Part shown: positions 1 through 13,330 of the stretch, in pieces | How positions within the stretch are numbered: the stretch's first letter is position 1 | Layout: the number at the start of each line of letters is the position of its first letter | From: an uncultured virus (IMG/VR IMGVR_UViG_3300030333_004509) | Taxonomy: Duplodnaviria; Heunggongvirae; Uroviricota; Caudoviricetes | Virus record (IMG/VR): IMGVR_UViG_3300030333_004509 | Location: 50,081-70,080 of that record | Direction: 5' to 3' (one strand) | DNA: 20,000 nt | Made by a program: the position numbers and the translations under genes | The notes under the pieces: generated by a model | Database searches by the model: none | What the model saw: only the letters and a program-made list of their open reading frames with translations | Told to the model about the DNA's origin: nothing

Positions 1-1
1 A

Positions 2-2707
2 ACTCAGCAAGGTGACGCCCAATGTGATAGCTGCCCGCTCAGGAACGGGGGGCCACTTTCGGAGGGAGAGTGGAAACCGGTGGGACCTGAGCTACACCAA
101 AGAGCGACCGTAATTGCAATTGCAGAGTCGCCCGGTCCCGAGGAGGTCGAGAGAGGCCGACCCCTTGTGGGCCGCTCTGGTGGTGAGTGGAACGATGCCC
201 TGCGTGCTGCGGGCAAGACTCGCCCCGAAGTGGACCTAACCCACGTAATCCTCTGCCGCCCACCAGGACAGTCTTCTGGTGCCTGGGGTCGGATGGAGAA
301 GAAGTTAGACAAGCTAAACAAGAAGCGAGAGAAAGACGGGCTGGACCCGCTGCCTCACCCGGCAGAGTGCTGTCGCCCTCGACTACTCGCTGAAGTATCA
401 AAGTACGATCACATCATCACGCTGGGTAAGACCGCCACTCGAGCTCTGACCGGCTCATCAGGATCCATCCAGGCTATGCGCGGTGGACCACTGTGGGTCG
501 ACGAAGACTGGCAGATCACGACAGACGATGACGCCAAGCTACGCCGAGTCATGCCGACTCTGCACCCCTCGTTTGTACTGCGCTCACCCAGCTGGCGTAA
601 CGTCTTGCACTCTGACATCGGTAAGGCTTTCCGTTGGTTCGGCGGGGCACTACGCTGGACTGAACCCGACATCCTATGGCGACCTTCACCCGAAGAGCTT
701 GAGGAGTGGCTTAGTCAACCAGCTCCTTTCTGGGCTTATGACGTGGAGACTGACGGTATCAACGCGCTCGAGTGCGGGTTGCGCACCTTGGCTATCGCCA
801 TCCCTGACATGGACGACCAAGGTCGAGTGGCTGACCCCACCATGGGTCGACAGGTCCACACGAACGCCAGGTCTGTAGGGTTGACATTCATGACTGTGAG
901 TGGGGTCGCATGGTTCGACACCGAGGAAGGCGCAGAGATCAAGGAGATCCTTCGACGGGCTTTCACTGATGGGCGTCCCTGGGTCGGACACAATGCCGGG
1001 TTCTTCGATCGACTGGTGATCGAGAACCACTTTGGTGTGACGCCATACCCCCTCATCGACACGCTCTTCCCCGCACGTTTCCGTGCACCTGACCTGCCCA
1101 AAGGTCTCAAGACTGTGGGTTCGGTACTCACCGACGTAGAGCGCTGGGAGAGTACAGAGAAGGGAACGAAGATCGCGACAGGCAGTGAAGACGACGATGA
1201 GCTGTTGCGTTACAACATCATTGACGCTGTAGTGAACGCACGTATCGTTCCTCCGCTTATCGTAGCTACTGAGAAAGCAGGCGCATTCCGCCCATGTAAC
1301 CCAGCGTTTCGTCCATCAGGTTGGCCCAGCCATAGACCCTGGGATCTCAACGAAGTGGATCACGCCACGCAGGAGATGTGTGTTGAGCTCCACAGGAACG
1401 GTATCTGGGTCGACCAGGCTAAGCGGCTAAGTCTCGAGGCAGAGTATGAGATCAGCGTTCAGCAACGACATAAACGGCTTAATGGTTTTATCGATGGAGT
1501 CCCCATCAATCCCGGTAGTGCTGATCAAATACGCGATCTACTGTATCGTCGTTGGGGCCTGGGCATACCACCTCAGATGGAAGCGAGAGACTTCTACACC
1601 GAGACTGGTGCCCCTGGAACAGGTGACGCTGTTCTCCGAGGACACTTAGCCAGCGGAAACTTGACGGCACAACAGGAAGAGTTCATACGTGAGCTGAGGT
1701 TGTACCGTAGAGAAAAGAACAAGATCTTAGGTACGGTGTTGATCCCGATGCGTCGACGAGACATCGACCTCAAGAAAGGCTTGGTCTGGGAAGACGGGCG
1801 TGTCCGCAGTAACTGGAACGCTCACGTCACCAGCGTAGGTAGGCTGTCCAGTAGTGGACCCAACCTCCAGAACATCGGTAACCGAAAGGGGCAGGGCAGG
1901 CTGAAGAGTATCTTCGCAGCACCACCTGGACGTGCTTACATCGGGGCTGACCTAGACCAGGCTCACCTGCGGATCACAGCCAACTACTGGCAGATACCAC
2001 GTCTACTCGAGTGCTTCGCGGAGAAGAAAGACCCGCACAACCTGCTGGCCTATGACGTATTCGGCTCGAAGTTTAAGAACGCTGATGGGTGGGGACCGGA
2101 AGGATTCAGCCTCAAGCGTAAGCCTACAAGCGGCTCAGCTAAAGCGATGCGTGATGTGATGAAGACGTTCCGCTATGCCTCGATCTACTGGGCAGATCCC
2201 ATGACCGTCTGGCAGGTGCTCACCTCAACGGAGACAAACGACGGCAAGATGCCGTACCTCAAGTTCGAGACTCGAGAGGTACGCCACTTCCATCGCAAGT
2301 GGTTGGAGGCTGAGCCTGAGTGGATGGATGCGTGGAACCGCATGCTCACGATCTACCGATACCAGAACTATATGGAGGAGCCTGTGCTGGGTAGGCGCAG
2401 CGGCGGGCTGAGTGACGGCAAGAAGAACGAGGTTGTTAACTTCCCGATCCTCGCCGCGGAGAGCTCGCTCATGCGACTGGCTGAGCAGGCTGTCATCGAA
2501 GCATTCCCGTTCCAGTTTGACGGGCCCGGCACTGGCATGATTCACCAGTGTCACGACAGTATCTGTGTCGAGGTCCCTGATGCAGGAGAAGAGCAGCTCG
2601 AGGAATGGCGCTGCATCGTAGAAGAATGCATGACAATCAAGGTGCCTGGCTGGGAGGTCGACCTGACTTCTGAGGCGGACATCGGACGAACACTAAAGGA
2701 TGTGTAA
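2..2707 (+). CDS. polA: Phage family A DNA polymerase with N-terminal family 4 UDG-like domain and 3'-5' exonuclease (5' partial)
   Basis: The frame is open upstream of the GTG at 80 to the window edge (TQQGDAQCDSCPL, the UDG4 Fe-S CxxC). UDG motifs: AESPGPEE..GRPLVGRSG, CRPP, LGKTA, HPSFVLR. Exo I/II/III: YDVETDG, GHNAGFFD, YNIIDA. Pol: GRLSSSGPNLQNI, motif A ADLDQAHLR, motif B RDVMKTFRYASIY, motif C QCHDSI. Confidence 0.95.
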   Translation, partial: TQQGDAQCDSCPLRNGGPLSEGEWKPVGPELHQRATVIAIAESPGPEEVERGRPLVGRSGGEWNDALRAAGKTRPEVDLTHVILCRPPGQSSGAWGRMEKKLDKLNKKREKDGLDPLPHPAECCRPRLLAEVSKYDHIITLGKTATRALTGSSGSIQAMRGGPLWVDEDWQITTDDDAKLRRVMPTLHPSFVLRSPSWRNVLHSDIGKAFRWFGGALRWTEPDILWRPSPEELEEWLSQPAPFWAYDVETDGINALECGLRTLAIAIPDMDDQGRVADPTMGRQVHTNARSVGLTFMTVSGVAWFDTEEGAEIKEILRRAFTDGRPWVGHNAGFFDRLVIENHFGVTPYPLIDTLFPARFRAPDLPKGLKTVGSVLTDVERWESTEKGTKIATGSEDDDELLRYNIIDAVVNARIVPPLIVATEKAGAFRPCNPAFRPSGWPSHRPWDLNEVDHATQEMCVELHRNGIWVDQAKRLSLEAEYEISVQQRHKRLNGFIDGVPINPGSADQIRDLLYRRWGLGIPPQMEARDFYTETGAPGTGDAVLRGHLASGNLTAQQEEFIRELRLYRREKNKILGTVLIPMRRRDIDLKKGLVWEDGRVRSNWNAHVTSVGRLSSSGPNLQNIGNRKGQGRLKSIFAAPPGRAYIGADLDQAHLRITANYWQIPRLLECFAEKKDPHNLLAYDVFGSKFKNADGWGPEGFSLKRKPTSGSAKAMRDVMKTFRYASIYWADPMTVWQVLTSTETNDGKMPYLKFETREVRHFHRKWLEAEPEWMDAWNRMLTIYRYQNYMEEPVLGRRSGGLSDGKKNEVVNFPILAAESSLMRLAEQAVIEAFPFQFDGPGTGMIHQCHDSICVEVPDAGEEQLEEWRCIVEECMTIKVPGWEVDLTSEADIGRTLKDV

Positions 2708-3159
2708 TGAGTACTGCAAGATGGTTCCTGGCGCATGACAAGTCGGTTGAGGAAGATCTCATCAACATGTGGGCCAAAGAACTAAAAGAACTGTTGGCTT
2801 CCCCCGGCTTTGAAGTCGAAGTAACTTCAGGTCGAGATGACTACATCGCTCGATCTGCAGCCTTGGGTGGCTGGGCTCGTTGGTGCGGTGATGTCCCGCA
2901 CGGTCGACGCTACGATGGTGATCCCATGTTCCATGGTGTAGTCGTACCCGTCAGTCCTGGTGACATGAAGCCGCTGGTCGGCAAGGCTACCTGTCAGATC
3001 GTCGCTGGCTTTATCAGCGAGATGAAGCACGCCTACACCTGGTGCCCCGCATCTGGTGAGTTTCAACGCATCGAAGATGTTCAAACGACTGACATGGACG
3101 ACTGGCGTGGCTGGGCTCAACTAATACTTGAGGTTGACGCCTCGTCACAATGTGAATAG
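2707..3159 (+). CDS. Hypothetical protein (150 aa), translationally coupled to the polymerase
   Basis: TAATG stop/start overlap with pol, upstream AAGGA SD-like sequence, globular composition. Confidence 0.85.
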   Translation: MSTARWFLAHDKSVEEDLINMWAKELKELLASPGFEVEVTSGRDDYIARSAALGGWARWCGDVPHGRRYDGDPMFHGVVVPVSPGDMKPLVGKATCQIVAGFISEMKHAYTWCPASGEFQRIEDVQTTDMDDWRGWAQLILEVDASSQCE

Positions 3160-3191: not shown

Positions 3192-4946
3192 ATGTCTAAG
3201 ACACCTTCGCCTGATCCCTATGTCAGGCTCATAGAGAGCAACGTAAAGAGTCCCACGGGGGACTTCTGGAAGCTAGAGCTCAGTCCTCGAACGCTGCTCG
3301 TTGGCTCAAACACATCACATAAGAGCGCGGTTCTGCAGTCAGTAGAGCTGGCATTGACGGGTGCTGCCGATGATATTGTCGGTCGATCTGCTGTCAAGGA
3401 TGCGGGCTTGCTCATGACTCTGTCCCCAAGCGACACGCTTGAGACTACAGCTTGTTTCTCGGATGGGTCAGAAGCTTTCTTCCGCGTCAAGAGTGACGGC
3501 AAGAAAGTCAGCAAGCCAGAGCACGCTCACGATCTCGATACCAAGCAGAGCCTACTGCTGCGTCAGGTTCGCTCAGTGCTTGCCTCAGGCACAGATACCT
3601 CTCGCCGCGCGTTTCTCCGGTGGGTAGGTAGAAACCTACAGGAAGAAGACATCCTGGCTTTCGTACCGACAAACCTGCACTCTAAGTATCGCGACTGGGC
3701 TGAGCATATCCGCGGAGATGACCAGGTAGACACGCTTCTTAAGATCTACGATTACGCAGCCAAGAAGCAGAGAGACTTGGGTCGACAGGCACAGGCGGCT
3801 CGCGCTGTGGTGCAGAGTCTCAGTGAAGATGTTGAGCTGGGTGACAGTGCTCAAGTCGGACATCTTAAAGAGAAGATCAGCAATCACATCTCGTTGATGG
3901 CTCACGCCTACACGGGCAGTCACCTGCCGGAAGGATGGAAGCACGTCGATGTATCTAAGCAGGCAGTGAACTTTGCGATTGAACAGGACCTCGAGTCGTG
4001 TCCTCTGTGCGGCAGCAACGTAGGCAACGAGCACTTTCACCGAGTCCTGGATTACTACCTCAAGGCTTGCGAAGACGTGGATCGAACTGATCAAGCAGCT
4101 TACTTGTTTGAGAAGAATACGGAGCTTCAAGAGATGCTCAACCAGCTGGCTGATCTGTCGAATAAGCAGGGGCAGCGTAGCTCAATGATGGACACGCAGG
4201 CCAAGGTGATCGAGCTTACGCAAGAAGCTGAGAACTACAAGCTCTACAAGTCACAGCTGTCTGACACTGTACTTCAGCTACTTCGCTCTTCTTTTGTCCA
4301 AGACTTCTGTCTGCAAGTTAGCGAGTACCTACCAAAGAACTGGCGCTTCTCAGTCAGGCTCAACGAGGGTGACCGCCAGGTGTTCCGGGTAGGTCTGTAT
4401 GACTCCGAGTCTGGGCGTGTGCGCTGCGCTTTGTCCGGTGCTGAGTGGGCTACAGTCACATCAGCGCTGGCTATGTGCGTGGCCGATGGACTGCCGGAGA
4501 CTACACCTCGAGTGATTATTCCTGAGGATCGAGCTTGGGATAAGAAGACCTTGGCGGCTGTTATGCGGAGCTTTAACTCCTTCGATGGTCAGGTCCTGAT
4601 GGCGAGCACCATCCGACCGCAGGGTCGCACTCCCAAGGGCTGGACCATTATCGACATGGACCAGTGGCTGGAGGAAGAGATCGAAGGCTCAGCTGAGGCT
4701 GCGGATGAGCAAGCAGAGCTTAGCTCATGTCCCGTAGACACTGAACCTGAGCGACCAGTCTCGAGCAAGGGAGCGAAGATCCTTACCGGTCTTGGCTACG
4801 ACAAGGAGCAGATCACGCACATGAACGTGTCGACTGCTGCGGCTATCATCAAGCAAGGTTTGTTGGCTGAGTACACTCACATCAGCTCAGACGGCGGTTA
4901 TGAGTTCACTCAGAGCAGCAAGCTGATTAAGTTGCCAGAACAATGA
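3192..4946 (+). CDS. Rad50/SbcC/gp46-like ABC-type ATPase with zinc hook (degenerate motifs)
   Basis: Walker A-like LLVGSNTSHKS, coiled coils flanking a CPLCG hook, signature LSGAE, Walker B region VIIPEDRAWD, then QVLMAS; strong SD. Confidence 0.8.
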   Translation: MSKTPSPDPYVRLIESNVKSPTGDFWKLELSPRTLLVGSNTSHKSAVLQSVELALTGAADDIVGRSAVKDAGLLMTLSPSDTLETTACFSDGSEAFFRVKSDGKKVSKPEHAHDLDTKQSLLLRQVRSVLASGTDTSRRAFLRWVGRNLQEEDILAFVPTNLHSKYRDWAEHIRGDDQVDTLLKIYDYAAKKQRDLGRQAQAARAVVQSLSEDVELGDSAQVGHLKEKISNHISLMAHAYTGSHLPEGWKHVDVSKQAVNFAIEQDLESCPLCGSNVGNEHFHRVLDYYLKACEDVDRTDQAAYLFEKNTELQEMLNQLADLSNKQGQRSSMMDTQAKVIELTQEAENYKLYKSQLSDTVLQLLRSSFVQDFCLQVSEYLPKNWRFSVRLNEGDRQVFRVGLYDSESGRVRCALSGAEWATVTSALAMCVADGLPETTPRVIIPEDRAWDKKTLAAVMRSFNSFDGQVLMASTIRPQGRTPKGWTIIDMDQWLEEEIEGSAEAADEQAELSSCPVDTEPERPVSSKGAKILTGLGYDKEQITHMNVSTAAAIIKQGLLAEYTHISSDGGYEFTQSSKLIKLPEQ

Positions 4947-5363: not shown

Positions 5364-7454
5364 ATGCCAGATACGGCGCAAGCCGATGGAGCTCAAGCTG
5401 AAAACCCTGAACCCATCTCAGCAATCGAAGCCCTTGAGAATCTACTAACTGCCGCGAGAGAACAGAACGCTGAAGCTCGCGACTCTGCCTGGTCCCAGAT
5501 CCAGGACCCTGATGTAATGGATGAGCTAGCTCGAGAGTGGCGCACATCCAGCGATCGGATCACCGCACTGATCTCAGCGCTTGAAACAACAAGAGGTCAG
5601 GCTCGTCGAGCCCGGACACTGCGTAACGCAATCAGGCGACTGGCTGAAGAGCGTGCTCGCCAGATGGCTGAGCAGTGGCTCAATGAACTACAAGAGGACA
5701 TGACCAGGCTACCTACCCTGGCCGAGGCGCTGAGCCTGGGCGGGCCGCCCGCGGGCGTAGTGGATCCCCTGGTCCTGGCGAACCTGCATGTACCTCGAGG
5801 ATTCCAGATCGAAGTCTCGGGAGTCTACCGATTGACTCCTGGGATGGACGGTGACATGCAGCGCACAAAGATCTGTTCCGCTCCGATGTTTATCTCAGGC
5901 CGGACCATCGATGTCCTTACCGGAGAAGCGAAACGTCAGGTTGTGTGGCGGGGGCCCAGTGGTTGGTGCTGCCGTGTCGTAGACAGGAGAACGATCCTTG
6001 ACGGCTCACGCATCATGTCCCTTGCGGATCTCGAGGCCCCGGTAAACTCAATCACAAGCGGACAGGTTATCACTTACCTGGCAGAGTTCGAGTCCGAGAA
6101 CAGTCACCGCTTCCCGGCAATCCGCTCAGCTTCGCGCATGGGCTGGCTCCCGGACGGCTCCTTTATCCTGCCGGACGTTCACTACACGCCGGACGATGAG
6201 CCCACCAGGTTCGCCTTGACCGCACCTCCCGGACTCGAGCAGCTATCCAAGGGTTGGGGCTCGGCAGGCACCTGGAACGAGTGGTGCAACGGTGTGCGCC
6301 AGATCTGTGAGTTCCCGCACATGATGATCTCCATCTATGCCGCGGCAGCTGCCCCGATCCTTACTGTCCTGCGCCTTCCCGGATTCGTCGTAGACTTCAG
6401 CGGCGAGACCAGCGGAGGTAAAACCACAGCTCTTCGTATGGCTGCGTCTGTGTGGGGTCGGCCCGCAGACAGTTATCCTACGGCGATGTATAGCTGGGAC
6501 GCCACCAAGGTCTGGATCGAGCGCACCACCGGCTACCTCCACAACCTGCCCTTGATTCTCGATGAGACCAAGCGCGTGCGTCATCCCCGGATGATTCGAG
6601 ATGTGATCTATGACTTCTGCCAGGGGCAGGGTCGAGGCCGCGGATCGGTCGACGGCACCAGGTCCATGGCATCCTGGCGCTCTGTCCTGATCAGCTCCGG
6701 CGAAGGTGCAGCCACCAGCTTCAGCCAAGATGCCGGAACTCGAGCTCGAGTCCTTAGCCTCAAAGGTAAGCCGTTGGGTAACAACGCAGAGGAAGGCGGC
6801 AAGATCAGCGAGAACATACAGGTGATTCTTTCGGATAACTACGGACACCTGGGCCGGAGGCTCGCTCATTACCTGGTCGCTAACACCGCAAACCATGACC
6901 AGATTCGGCAGGTCTTCAAGGAAGCTCGGGACCGGTACTCGAACATTGCACAGACTGCGGTAGCTCGTAGACACGCAGCTCACCTGGCTGTTCTCGAAGT
7001 AACCGCACAGATCGTTCATCAGCTTGACGTGCCTCGTCCGCTCGAGGATCCCTTCGCTCGACTGATCGAGGCCGCGGCGGACGCAGGCATCGACGCCGAC
7101 CGACCGTTCGCTGCGATGCAGGACATCGTGAGCTGGTGCGCAGCCAATCGCACACGGTTCTGGGGCCGACATGAGAGCACCTCCTTTGGCCCACGCACAC
7201 CCGGAAACGGTTGGGCTGGGGCCTGGTCAGACGAGGAGGGCTGGGAGTTCATCGCGATAACCACACTAACGCTTCGTCAGATTCTGGATGAGCTGGGCCA
7301 CCATCCTGACGAGGTGATCACCCGGTGGGACGAGAGAGGCTGGCTCTTCAGGGGACGAGGGCGAAACCGAACCAAGGTCGTGCGCGTGGATGGCTCCCCG
7401 ATCCGCTGCTACTGCATCGACCGGAGAGCTGCTGACCTGGCGCTGGATGACTGA
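5364..7454 (+). CDS. DUF927-domain, Cch-like replicative helicase/ATPase with a probable C-terminal winged helix
   Basis: DUF927-like RMGWLPDGSFILP and GTWNEW; Walker A GETSGGKTT; Walker B LILDE; GQGRGRG, LISSGE and RARVL motifs; C-terminal WDERGWL...VVRVDG..RCYCI. Confidence 0.88.
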   Translation: MPDTAQADGAQAENPEPISAIEALENLLTAAREQNAEARDSAWSQIQDPDVMDELAREWRTSSDRITALISALETTRGQARRARTLRNAIRRLAEERARQMAEQWLNELQEDMTRLPTLAEALSLGGPPAGVVDPLVLANLHVPRGFQIEVSGVYRLTPGMDGDMQRTKICSAPMFISGRTIDVLTGEAKRQVVWRGPSGWCCRVVDRRTILDGSRIMSLADLEAPVNSITSGQVITYLAEFESENSHRFPAIRSASRMGWLPDGSFILPDVHYTPDDEPTRFALTAPPGLEQLSKGWGSAGTWNEWCNGVRQICEFPHMMISIYAAAAAPILTVLRLPGFVVDFSGETSGGKTTALRMAASVWGRPADSYPTAMYSWDATKVWIERTTGYLHNLPLILDETKRVRHPRMIRDVIYDFCQGQGRGRGSVDGTRSMASWRSVLISSGEGAATSFSQDAGTRARVLSLKGKPLGNNAEEGGKISENIQVILSDNYGHLGRRLAHYLVANTANHDQIRQVFKEARDRYSNIAQTAVARRHAAHLAVLEVTAQIVHQLDVPRPLEDPFARLIEAAADAGIDADRPFAAMQDIVSWCAANRTRFWGRHESTSFGPRTPGNGWAGAWSDEEGWEFIAITTLTLRQILDELGHHPDEVITRWDERGWLFRGRGRNRTKVVRVDGSPIRCYCIDRRAADLALDD

Positions 7455-7655
7455 ATGCCAATCTACGAATACAAATGTGCGAAGTGCAACATCAGTATCG
7501 AACGACTCGTTCGTATGAATGAGACTGCTAAGCCAGACTGTCCGATGTGTAATGAAGAGATGAAGCGCATAATCAGTCAAACCAGCTTCGTCCTTAAGGG
7601 CGGAGGCTGGTTCGCTGATAGCTACTCCTCGAGCTCCGCGGACCCAAACAAGTAA
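7455..7655 (+). CDS. FmdB-family (CxxC_CxxC_SSSS) zinc-ribbon regulatory protein
   Basis: MPIYEYKCAKC...CPMC...KRIIS..SFVLKGGGW..DSY is the canonical pattern. Confidence 0.9.
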   Translation: MPIYEYKCAKCNISIERLVRMNETAKPDCPMCNEEMKRIISQTSFVLKGGGWFADSYSSSSADPNK

Positions 7656-12446: not shown

Positions 12447-12785
12447 AGCGTTACGACCTACGAGGGAGGGTATGTCGTAACGCTGAAAGAGCAGGTCGAA
12501 CCTAACCTATCGCCCAGTTCTTGACAGTTCTTTGACATCTCTGTTACGACCCCGTCGTAACAACCATTCAACAGGTTGAACCTGGACAATGGTCGAGCCT
12601 CGGGGGGCGTTACGACATGATCGCACAACACATAGACATGTCTCTGGATGGATAAGCATAAGCACATAAACAGGCTGCAATGACCTATCCAACCAGTCAG
12701 AAGGGTATATGTAAGAGTTTAGGTCGTAACACGTTATTTTGCGGGCGATTGTTCCGCTTCAACCTACACTCTGAGCGTTACGACC
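12447..12785. repeat. Array of seven GTTACGAC octamers in alternating orientation (candidate replication origin)
   Basis: Copies at 12450(+), 12474(-), 12543(+), 12554(-), 12609(+), 12723(-), 12777(+); non-coding; relatively AT-rich 12650-12740. Confidence 0.8.
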
Positions 12786-12786
12786 C

Positions 12787-12796
12787 NNNNNNNNNN
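12787..12796. other. Assembly/scaffold gap
   Basis: Ten N characters. Confidence 0.99.
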
Positions 12797-13330
12797 ATGG
12801 AAGACTCCACTGAACAAACGATCTCACCTGCAAACGAACCGACCACGCTTGTGCCTACCGTCGTAGTCCCGCCAGGGGAAGACGAGGTTGTGAGTATGCT
12901 GGTCGAAGAAAGCAGGTTTGAGAATGAGCCTGAGGTCCAGGCCGCCGCAGCTCGGCTACTCGAAGCCGGTTACACAGTTTCTGTGGTTGCGAGGCGGCTC
13001 CAACTCAGGCCTTCGACCCTCTGGCGCTGGTCTAAAGAACCAGATATTGCTTCAGCGATCCAAGCTGGCCGCGAATATAGACGTCAGACCTTGGGACAAG
13101 GGCTCGAGCACGCCGCTGAAGCTGCTCTATCAGCTCTTTTGGAGGTTGCGGAGGACGTTGGGGCCGCTCCAAGGGACAGAGTCAAGGCTTCTGAGGCGAT
13201 TCTGGACCGGTGTGGGATCACACCAGCCGCAGAATCCGCCGGATCTACCACAGCTGTAGCCGTAGAAGTAGATTTTGATGATAGACTGGCCCGGATCGTG
13301 GCCCAATCGGCCATCGCGCCGACTAAATAG
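12797..13330 (+). CDS. Terminase small subunit-like HTH protein (start uncertain, abuts the gap)
   Basis: HTH AARLLEAGYTVSVVARRLQLRPSTLWRW followed by helices and RVKASEAILDRCG, the usual TerS architecture. Confidence 0.65.
   Translation: MEDSTEQTISPANEPTTLVPTVVVPPGEDEVVSMLVEESRFENEPEVQAAAARLLEAGYTVSVVARRLQLRPSTLWRWSKEPDIASAIQAGREYRRQTLGQGLEHAAEAALSALLEVAEDVGAAPRDRVKASEAILDRCGITPAAESAGSTTAVAVEVDFDDRLARIVAQSAIAPTK

Follow-up and report, generated by a model that had tools for sequence, protein, structure and literature searches.

Two alternative forms of a four-residue active-site cluster in glycosylase-polymerase fusions of uncultured phages

What should be made of a family A DNA polymerase in which the steric-gate glutamate (E710 of the Klenow fragment) is a histidine? 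This glutamate and its hydrogen-bonded partner Tyr766 have been called universally conserved in A-family polymerases (PMC3715850). The question is raised by the first gene of a stretch of 20,000 nucleotides (the window), positions 50,081 to 70,080 of the uncultured virus record IMGVR_UViG_3300030333_004509 in IMG/VR. The window is the final 20 kb of a single contig of 70,080 bp encoding a portal, a large terminase, a major head protein, an open reading frame (ORF) of 4,190 aa, and a replication module. The portal, terminase, head protein and replication module identify a tailed-phage genome, and its source is an uncultured marine tailed phage of about 70 kb. The gene in question (1..2707, stop codon TAA at 2705-2707; plus strand, as are all features below whose coordinates are written with two dots) encodes a fusion joining a uracil-DNA glycosylase (UDG), an exonuclease, and a family A polymerase (PolA), of 910 aa in total. 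It is the sole polymerase found in the contig: Pfam and PHROG scans of the 76 ORFs covering the genome matched no second polymerase family. The original prediction, made from the letters of the window, listed His at E710 and Leu at Q849 together with the pair YW, the motif HDS, a Tyr at position 762, and an Arg for Asn as changes of a single nucleotide-selection pocket, and proposed that they were selected for new chemistry rather than produced by decay.

Translation of positions 2-2707 reproduced all the motifs quoted in that prediction. The HMMER alignment with PDB sequences paired ADLDQAHLRI with ADYSQIELRI of Klenow, which puts His655 (codon CAC, 1964..1966; P0001 numbering throughout) in the place of the steric-gate Glu. 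It also paired NFPILAAES with NAPMQGTAAD, which puts Leu817 (codon CTC, 2450..2452) at Q849, so that alignment and directly read codons agree with the predicted substitutions. In motif C (His-Asp-Ser, 2552..2560, at the positions of H881, D882, and E883), HQCHDS paired with MQVHDE, and D852 and S853 correspond to D882 and E883. Motif B, RDVMKTFRYASIYW (2150..2191), fell outside the HMMER alignment and was placed by inspection. We take its residues R717, K721, Y725, Y729, and W730 to be the counterparts of R754, K758, F762, Y766, and G767, by eye against the Klenow motif; the R754, K758, and Y766 equivalents are thus retained, with Tyr at 762, Arg at 761, and Trp at 767. As had been claimed, the rest of the catalytic apparatus is intact: both catalytic Asp residues (D650 and D852) and all three Exo motifs are there, and D650, R614 (R668), R717, K721, Y729, and the exonuclease residues vary hardly at all among homologs.

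The search of 5.8 billion proteins revealed a large family of metagenomic origin (marine and other), with many members on contigs of 65-74 kb. Among the query and its 120 best matches (62-100% identity), His655, Leu817, and Glu820 were invariant (121/121), residue 612 was always V or P (121/121), and residue 730 varied (W 84, A 25, G 11, K 1). By these alignments, the conservation of H655, L817, and E820 is far beyond chance. A more diverse set was made of the query and the best 150 of 10,384 HMMER hits (353 of them below 1e-30) among 1.84 billion cluster representatives (50% clustering). The gate position of these 151 rows was occupied by His (95), Glu (54), Asp (1), or a gap (1). Where His-type rows had residues at the other columns, the Q849 position was Leu (88) or Ile (5) and the A852 position was Glu (92), Asp (1), or His (1), giving 87 H/L/E triplets, 5 H/I/E, 1 H/L/D, and 2 rows with gaps. 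All of the 54 Glu-type rows carried Gln at 849 and A, G, C, S, M, or N at 852, where none had Glu. The remaining two rows were D/Q/A and, with a gap at 655, -/L/E. There was therefore no mixed His/Glu state among the 151 aligned polymerases. Residue 612 followed the same division: the main His clade had V (62), P (16), or I (4), the Glu type had T (39), S (12), or G (2), and the six rows of two smaller His clades nested among Glu-type sequences all had V.

All columns of the alignment between position 200 and the C terminus were then scanned for a difference between types present in all three His clades. Exactly four columns switched: 612, where the Thr or Ser of the TGR motif becomes Val (codon GTA, 1835..1837); 655, Glu to His; 817, Gln to Leu or Ile; and 820, Ala or Gly to Glu (codon GAG, 2459..2461; Klenow A852). 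Val612 lies two residues ahead of Arg614, the R668 equivalent, and Glu820 one helix turn past Leu817. No member of the Val/His/Leu/Glu set occurred in any of the 54 Glu-type sisters. The pattern held in a second sample of 97 sequences around one nested His clade (12 V/H/L/E, 85 canonical, no intermediates) and in a pair of IMG/VR loci, one His-type (L177) and one Glu-type (L114), whose polymerase domains are 50% identical and differ at all four positions. In this UDG-PolA subfamily, the polar cluster near the primer terminus and the incoming sugar has two forms, Thr/Glu710/Gln849/Ala-or-Gly852 or Val/His/Leu/Glu, and the steric-gate Glu is a generalization over known family A members rather than a catalytic requirement.

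Other peculiarities of the pocket do not belong to the switch. The HDS or HDA form of motif C and the Tyr at 762 occur in both types and are therefore outside it; outgroup phages and 47 of the 54 Glu-type rows likewise carry Ser or Ala at the 883 position, and the residue that follows Y766 is variable in both types. The YW, HDS, and Tyr762 features singled out by the original prediction are thus ordinary in the UDG-PolA subfamily, and its Arg for Asn (R724, in the place of N761) is confined to the main His clade, where it is typical. Its list of pocket changes stands for His655 and Leu817 and had overlooked Val612 and Glu820; likewise, the covariation of H, L, and W that it envisaged is seen for His and Leu, which switch together, but not for the variable Trp730. 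Constraint on two neighbors of the gate is looser in the His type, where the Q708 position is Q in 72/95 rows and the R712 position is R in 73/95 (54/54 and 52/54, respectively, in the Glu type), and the behavior of the pocket is therefore not identical in the two types.

Two further features of the active-site motifs were observed in these alignments. The H881 equivalent is Tyr (QNYDS) in a nested His clade (P0220, P0303, P0152, P0304, P0305, P0309, P0310, P0202, and L177); Tyr is found there in 10 of the 95 His-type representatives and none of the 54 Glu-type ones, and in 8 of the 12 V/H/L/E sequences of the 97-sequence sample. Moreover, insertions of 100-412 residues are present in 19 of the 151 polymerases. 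They occupy three hot spots, namely a site beside the TGR/PNLQN motif (residues 610-621), motif B after residue 726, and residue 817, the Q849 equivalent (P0110, P0123, P0198, P0221, P0224, P0237, P0238, P0264; P0128, P0153, P0191, P0218, P0226, P0236, P0239, P0268; P0199, P0241). Precomputed Pfam annotations show HNH or intein-type domains in some of the carriers, and these insertions are probably inteins lodged in active-site motifs.

The history of the switch was traced on trees built with the trait columns removed. In a FastTree phylogeny of 145 rows, the His state required three changes. An IQ-TREE phylogeny of 60 rows included the polymerases of phages Rctr197k, Mel-JY34, BillDoor, N4-like XC38, and Opt-155 as outgroups, which carry Glu or Asp together with Gln (motif 6 of XC38 was aligned inconsistently). 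The Glu-type sequences formed a basal grade, and His was found in one main clade and in the two small clades nested among Glu-type sisters. A careful tree search supported the nested groupings at 99/97 and 99/99, three His changes were recovered in 200 of 200 bootstrap trees, and the approximately unbiased (AU) test rejected the grouping of all His-type sequences in one clade (delta lnL = 75.7; P = 0.020). At the other discriminating columns (659, 668, 682, 724, 771, 774, 800, and 884) the nested His clades match their Glu-type neighbors, which argues against transfer of the site as one block and for repeated convergence by point mutation. These trees indicate that the His form arose at least three times from Glu-type ancestors, and such repeated convergent acquisition suggests a selective advantage. 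The claim that the changes were selected, and reflect neither decay nor assembly error, is thus borne out by the invariance in 121/121 close homologs, the all-or-none pattern in 151 polymerases, and the three or more origins; normal Glu and Gln residues were not seen in any close homolog. The site is a real, strongly selected, and apparently undescribed family A variant of a large clade of uncultured phages. A literature search, which covered text only, found no account of a His gate; the motif logos of PMC10201439 could hold one.

The enzyme is probably a replicative, proofreading, and uracil-sensing family A DNA polymerase that still copies DNA from deoxynucleoside triphosphates (dNTPs) with a rewired active-site cluster. 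Ordinary DNA synthesis from dNTPs is the most likely activity because this polymerase is the only one of its phage, otherwise intact, and strongly conserved. In Bst polymerase, Q797, R615, E658, and D830 (Klenow Q849, R668, E710, and D882) are described as near one another and in electrostatic interaction (PMC10520511). The switching positions are these residues or their immediate neighbors, the Thr lying on the same strand as the Arg and position 852 one turn after 849, and such proximity fits a coupled cluster. The gate carboxylate would have been relocated to position 852, a turn further along helix Q, and since Glu is exchanged for His and Ala for Glu, the surroundings of the invariant Arg and catalytic Asp would keep their net charge. 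The imidazole would occupy the gate position, with Val and Leu repacking the space, and the His would serve as a bulky ring-shaped gate against the 2'-OH, ordinary dNTPs being used. The loss of the minor-groove contact of Gln849 would be tolerated, or offset by Glu820 and proofreading, and sugar and mismatch selectivity may differ in degree. The HDS motif is compatible with activity, since the characterized Tt72 phage polymerase is described as active with D615/S616 in motif C (PMC9324360).

Several points weigh against this view. Klenow E710A and E710Q are described as poor, slow, and mutator or error-prone enzymes (PMC3715850), and retention of normal function is therefore an assumption made from conservation and compensation. 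Contacts of Glu820 with His655 or with the Arg, as well as the relocation of charge, are inferences. At about 21-25% identity the outgroups are distant, and long branches lead to three of them, so that the direction of change depends on them and on the presence of Glu in the other PolAs examined; in addition, the group submitted to the AU test was named only after the tree had been seen. Finally, the selective advantage suggested by convergence would be left unexplained by a purely neutral rewiring.

Such an advantage would be accounted for if Val/His/Leu/Glu were an adaptive alternative site that alters sugar or minor-groove acceptance, that is, a natural second solution to sugar gating in which a His-Glu pair replaces the Glu. 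Ribo- or 2'-substituted nucleotides may then be tolerated, or chain-terminating analogs rejected. We give this a low probability. It is rather unlikely that the switch changes sugar selectivity to the point that ribonucleotides or sugar-modified nucleotides are incorporated, that a 2'-OH or another 2'/3' substituent is hydrogen bonded, or that chain terminators are rejected better than by the usual Tyr762-type enzymes. The switched positions are the gate itself and its neighbors, the three independent origins argue for an advantage, and the relaxed constraint at the Q708 and R712 positions points the same way. The Tyr at 762 is also present, a residue that is said, after work by Tabor and Richardson in 1995, to make PolAs accept dideoxynucleotides. 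However, the gate of Klenow and Taq is opened by Ala or Gly substitutions, and His is bulkier than either. Moreover, no RNase H and no ribonucleotide- or analog-related gene was specific to His-type loci.

An adjustment to noncanonical bases of the genome (modified thymidine, 7-deazaguanine, 2-aminoadenine, or a minor-groove modification) is improbable. UDG-PolA fusions have been linked to the T-modified phages SPO1, SP-15, and YerA41 (PMC10201439, PMC13697223), and loss of the Gln849 contact could make an altered minor groove tolerable. Yet no thymidylate-synthase-like, hydroxymethylase, dUTPase, deaminase, PurZ-like, or deazaguanine gene, nor any other gene of nucleotide synthesis, metabolism, or modification, was found by Pfam and PHROG in the 76 ORFs, the scan for which the original prediction had called. 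To extend the comparison to related phages, we clustered the ORFs of 162 related loci and the query region (19 loci untyped by motif pattern and 5 Asp-type loci left out). The His- and Glu-type phages have the replication module in common, and in the 24 differential neighbor families scanned, those restricted to the His type were regulators, the DUF927 helicase, and unknowns, with no modification or nucleotide-metabolism gene among them. The differences between His- and Glu-type loci are confounded by descent, because each of the 80 His-type loci from IMG/VR has 57-86% identity to the query. Exact-pattern scans gave no loci for the two nested His clades, and an alignment-based scan gave L177, a nested His-type locus, and L114, its Glu-type sister, both with flanks too short to compare. 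A small family with an NrdR-type zinc ribbon (PF22811) was present in 22 His-type loci and no Glu-type ones. Conversely, UDG-PolA phages with modification genes beside the polymerase keep Thr/Glu/Gln: this is the case of Brevundimonas phage StAshley, with 7-deazaguanine synthesis genes, and of isolate ctfzr933, with a pyrimidine hydroxymethylase and a thymidylate synthase. The switched residues also face the sugar and the minor groove, whereas known phage base modifications sit in the major groove.

Even less credence can be given to self-priming in the manner of CCPol-MP of SCCmec, with the translationally coupled ORF of 150 aa (2707..3159) as a single-stranded DNA-binding partner. No recognizable DnaG or archaeo-eukaryotic primase (AEP) domain was found in the 76 ORFs, and the small ORF begins with an ATG that shares sequence with the stop codon of the polymerase gene. 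The order polymerase, small ORF, and, further on, DUF927/Cch-type helicase recalls the CCPol-MP-Cch2 arrangement as described (PMC10061031, PMC7581432). On the other hand, CCPol is reported to keep the E710 and F762 equivalents and to be missing the greater part of its exonuclease domain (Bebel et al. 2020, PMC7581432); the His is therefore no mark of the known PolA primase, and the present enzyme has Exo I, Exo II, and Exo III. The 150-aa ORF adjoins the polymerase in 45 His-type loci but also in 10 Glu-type loci, and it has no OB-fold (oligonucleotide/oligosaccharide-binding) signal (Atlas model pLDDT 0.47, no usable match). The DUF927 protein (5364..7454; PF06048, E = 2.9e-43) falls in "primase/helicase" PHROGs (phrog_8841, E = 2.5e-100) and may itself prime. 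The new chemistry foreseen by the original prediction thus found no backing in the 76 ORFs, in the modification-bearing UDG-PolA phages, or in CCPol, and no evidence here links the switch to it. Private decay, a pseudogene, or an assembly artifact can be dismissed, since the ORF is open for 910 aa and identical residues are found in 121/121 homologs from many independent metagenomes and in 80 IMG/VR loci.

Hundreds of apparently functional replicases do without Glu710, with compensating changes and with Glu-type sisters at about 50% identity. These natural variants make testable the dependence of sugar gating and minor-groove checking on exact side chains, and they offer a possible new scaffold for polymerase engineers and for work with modified nucleotides. 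Should the enzyme act like an ordinary Pol I, it would be a clean case of repeated, coupled compensatory evolution of an active site.

The whole protein was assigned by its domains. The ORF starts at a TTG at genome position 50055, 26 bases ahead of the window and preceded by GGGGGAG, and positions 2-2707 hold the 3' 901 of its 910 codons. The stored gene call (875 aa, GTG at window position 80) would remove the conserved CxxC of the glycosylase Fe-S site, which the TTG start retains. The UDG domain (23..595; PF03167, 52.2 bits against a cutoff of 24.3, residues 34-198) establishes the UDG-PolA fusion and is of family 4, with AESPG (Glu42), HPS (His188), and four cysteines (C8, C11, C85, and C124, supported by column counts in homologs); it matches PDB sequences 1L9G, 1VK2, and 1UI0 with E values of about 1e-11 to 1e-12. 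The 3'-5' exonuclease domain (728..1261) has Exo I YDVETD, Exo II GHNAGFFD, and Exo III YNIIDA; its Pfam score (DNA_pol_A_exo1, 20.9 bits) was under the cutoff of 23.6, and of D247, E249, N331, D336, Y404, and D408, each is conserved in 87-88 of the 89 His-type rows and in 30-31 of the 31 Glu-type rows compared. The polymerase domain, with thumb, palm, and fingers (1436..2695; PF00476, DNA_pol_A, 111.3 bits against a cutoff of 34.3, residues 479-898), passed the family A profile, and the best PHROG match was phrog_17, DNA polymerase (E = 4.9e-71). An AlphaFold2 model based on 120 homologs (pLDDT 95.4, pTM 0.92) has a Klenow-like fold: the top Foldseek structures were the Klenow, Bst, and Taq large fragments, with template-modeling (TM) scores by target of 0.78-0.82 (1kfs, E = 7.6e-28, TM 0.78).

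Klenow, Bst, and Taq are thus the nearest structures, with equivalent catalytic Asp, R668, R754, K758, and Y766 residues. The present enzyme is only about 16-20% identical to them, differs by T666V, E710H, Q849L, A852E, and E883S, and has an extra UDG domain and no 5' nuclease domain. Its closest relatives outside the His type are the Glu/Gln-type sisters (P0173, P0210, P0266, and L114). They have the same UDG-exonuclease-polymerase architecture (34-50% identity in the polymerase domain), the Fe-S cysteines and exonuclease residues, the HDS/HDA motif C, mostly Tyr at 762, and a replication module with an SNF2 helicase, a PD-(D/E)XK nuclease, an AAA_24 protein, and an SbcC-like ATPase, but keep Thr/Ser-Gly-Arg, Glu710, Gln849, and Ala/Gly852. 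Neither the query nor two other His-type members had a match above about 27% identity among deposited phages. A scan of GTDB genomes gave two phage-like contigs with His-type polymerases (L010 and L011, of 28.8 and 70.0 kb) binned in one Myxococcaceae metagenome-assembled genome, and a further match to the UDG part only; the two contigs are probably phage DNA binned there in error, and as a pointer to the host they are weak at best.

Published UDG-PolA fusions comprise the N4-like (cluster #17), SPO1-like, and SP15-like enzymes (PMC10201439, PMC13697223), and the present subfamily is none of these by identity, retained UDG residues, or size. According to Czernecki et al. 2023 (PMC10201439), the N4-like enzymes of cluster #17 no longer have the UDG catalytic residues. 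The present enzyme has Glu42, His188, and the four cysteines, and the one Schitoviridae sequence compared, XC38, is 26% identical, an outgroup at 97/95 support, and has Glu at the gate; membership of cluster #17 was rejected on these grounds. The UDG domain of the SPO1-like and SP15-like enzymes (YerA41, phiLo) is reported to keep its catalytic motifs, as here, and a coupling of uracil excision to replication has been proposed for them (Missoury et al. 2026, PMC13697223). The SP15-like enzymes come from T-hypermodified phages and have, as described, two large inserts and a C-terminal domain (YerA41, 1,306 aa; PMC13697223), whereas the present one has 910 aa, a Klenow-sized polymerase domain, and a genome in which no modification genes were found. 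Membership of this group of about 1,300 aa was rejected by size. The CCPol-MP type of PolA primase, with its truncated exonuclease, was likewise rejected for a protein with complete Exo I-III motifs.

A possible His gate was encountered in one more polymerase. The divPolA1 of Flavobacterium phage immuto (gp001, L013:1-1323) has His at the gate (DFDGYHLRL) and Glu at the 852 equivalent (NYMMQSLET), in a weak alignment (E = 0.003); Gln849 is retained, and nothing of the TGR type is matched in the alignment. If that alignment holds, divPolA1 would be a fourth, distant co-occurrence of His and Glu. This protein is described as a miniature, thumb-truncated, and exonuclease-dead second polymerase (Yutin et al. 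2024, PMC11348598). Its architecture and role are unrelated to those found here, and membership was rejected for the present enzyme, a sole polymerase with a full-length fold and an intact exonuclease.

Downstream of the 150-aa ORF, the window encodes a protein of 584 aa (3192..4946), a probable SbcC/Rad50-like ATPase. This lead comes from language-model and structure look-alikes only, the nearest clusters carrying AAA_23 or SMC_N; no Pfam, PHROG, or PDB sequence matched, and a primase was rejected as its identity on account of the SbcC/Rad50 resemblance. Directly after the gene of the DUF927/Cch-HTH (helix-turn-helix) helicase lies that of a 66-aa zinc-ribbon protein (7455-7655; PF09723, E = 9.7e-13). 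A run of 10 N (12787-12796) is located inside an ORF of 216 aa resembling HTH proteins and small terminases (12680-13330), and marks either a gap in the assembly or withheld sequence. Outside the window, the 4,190-aa ORF (genome positions 26087-38659) comes after two others, of 1,410 and 1,021 aa, in the structural region. Its first 3,971 residues, the part scanned, had no Pfam or PHROG match, and it may be a giant protein that is ejected or internal to the virion.

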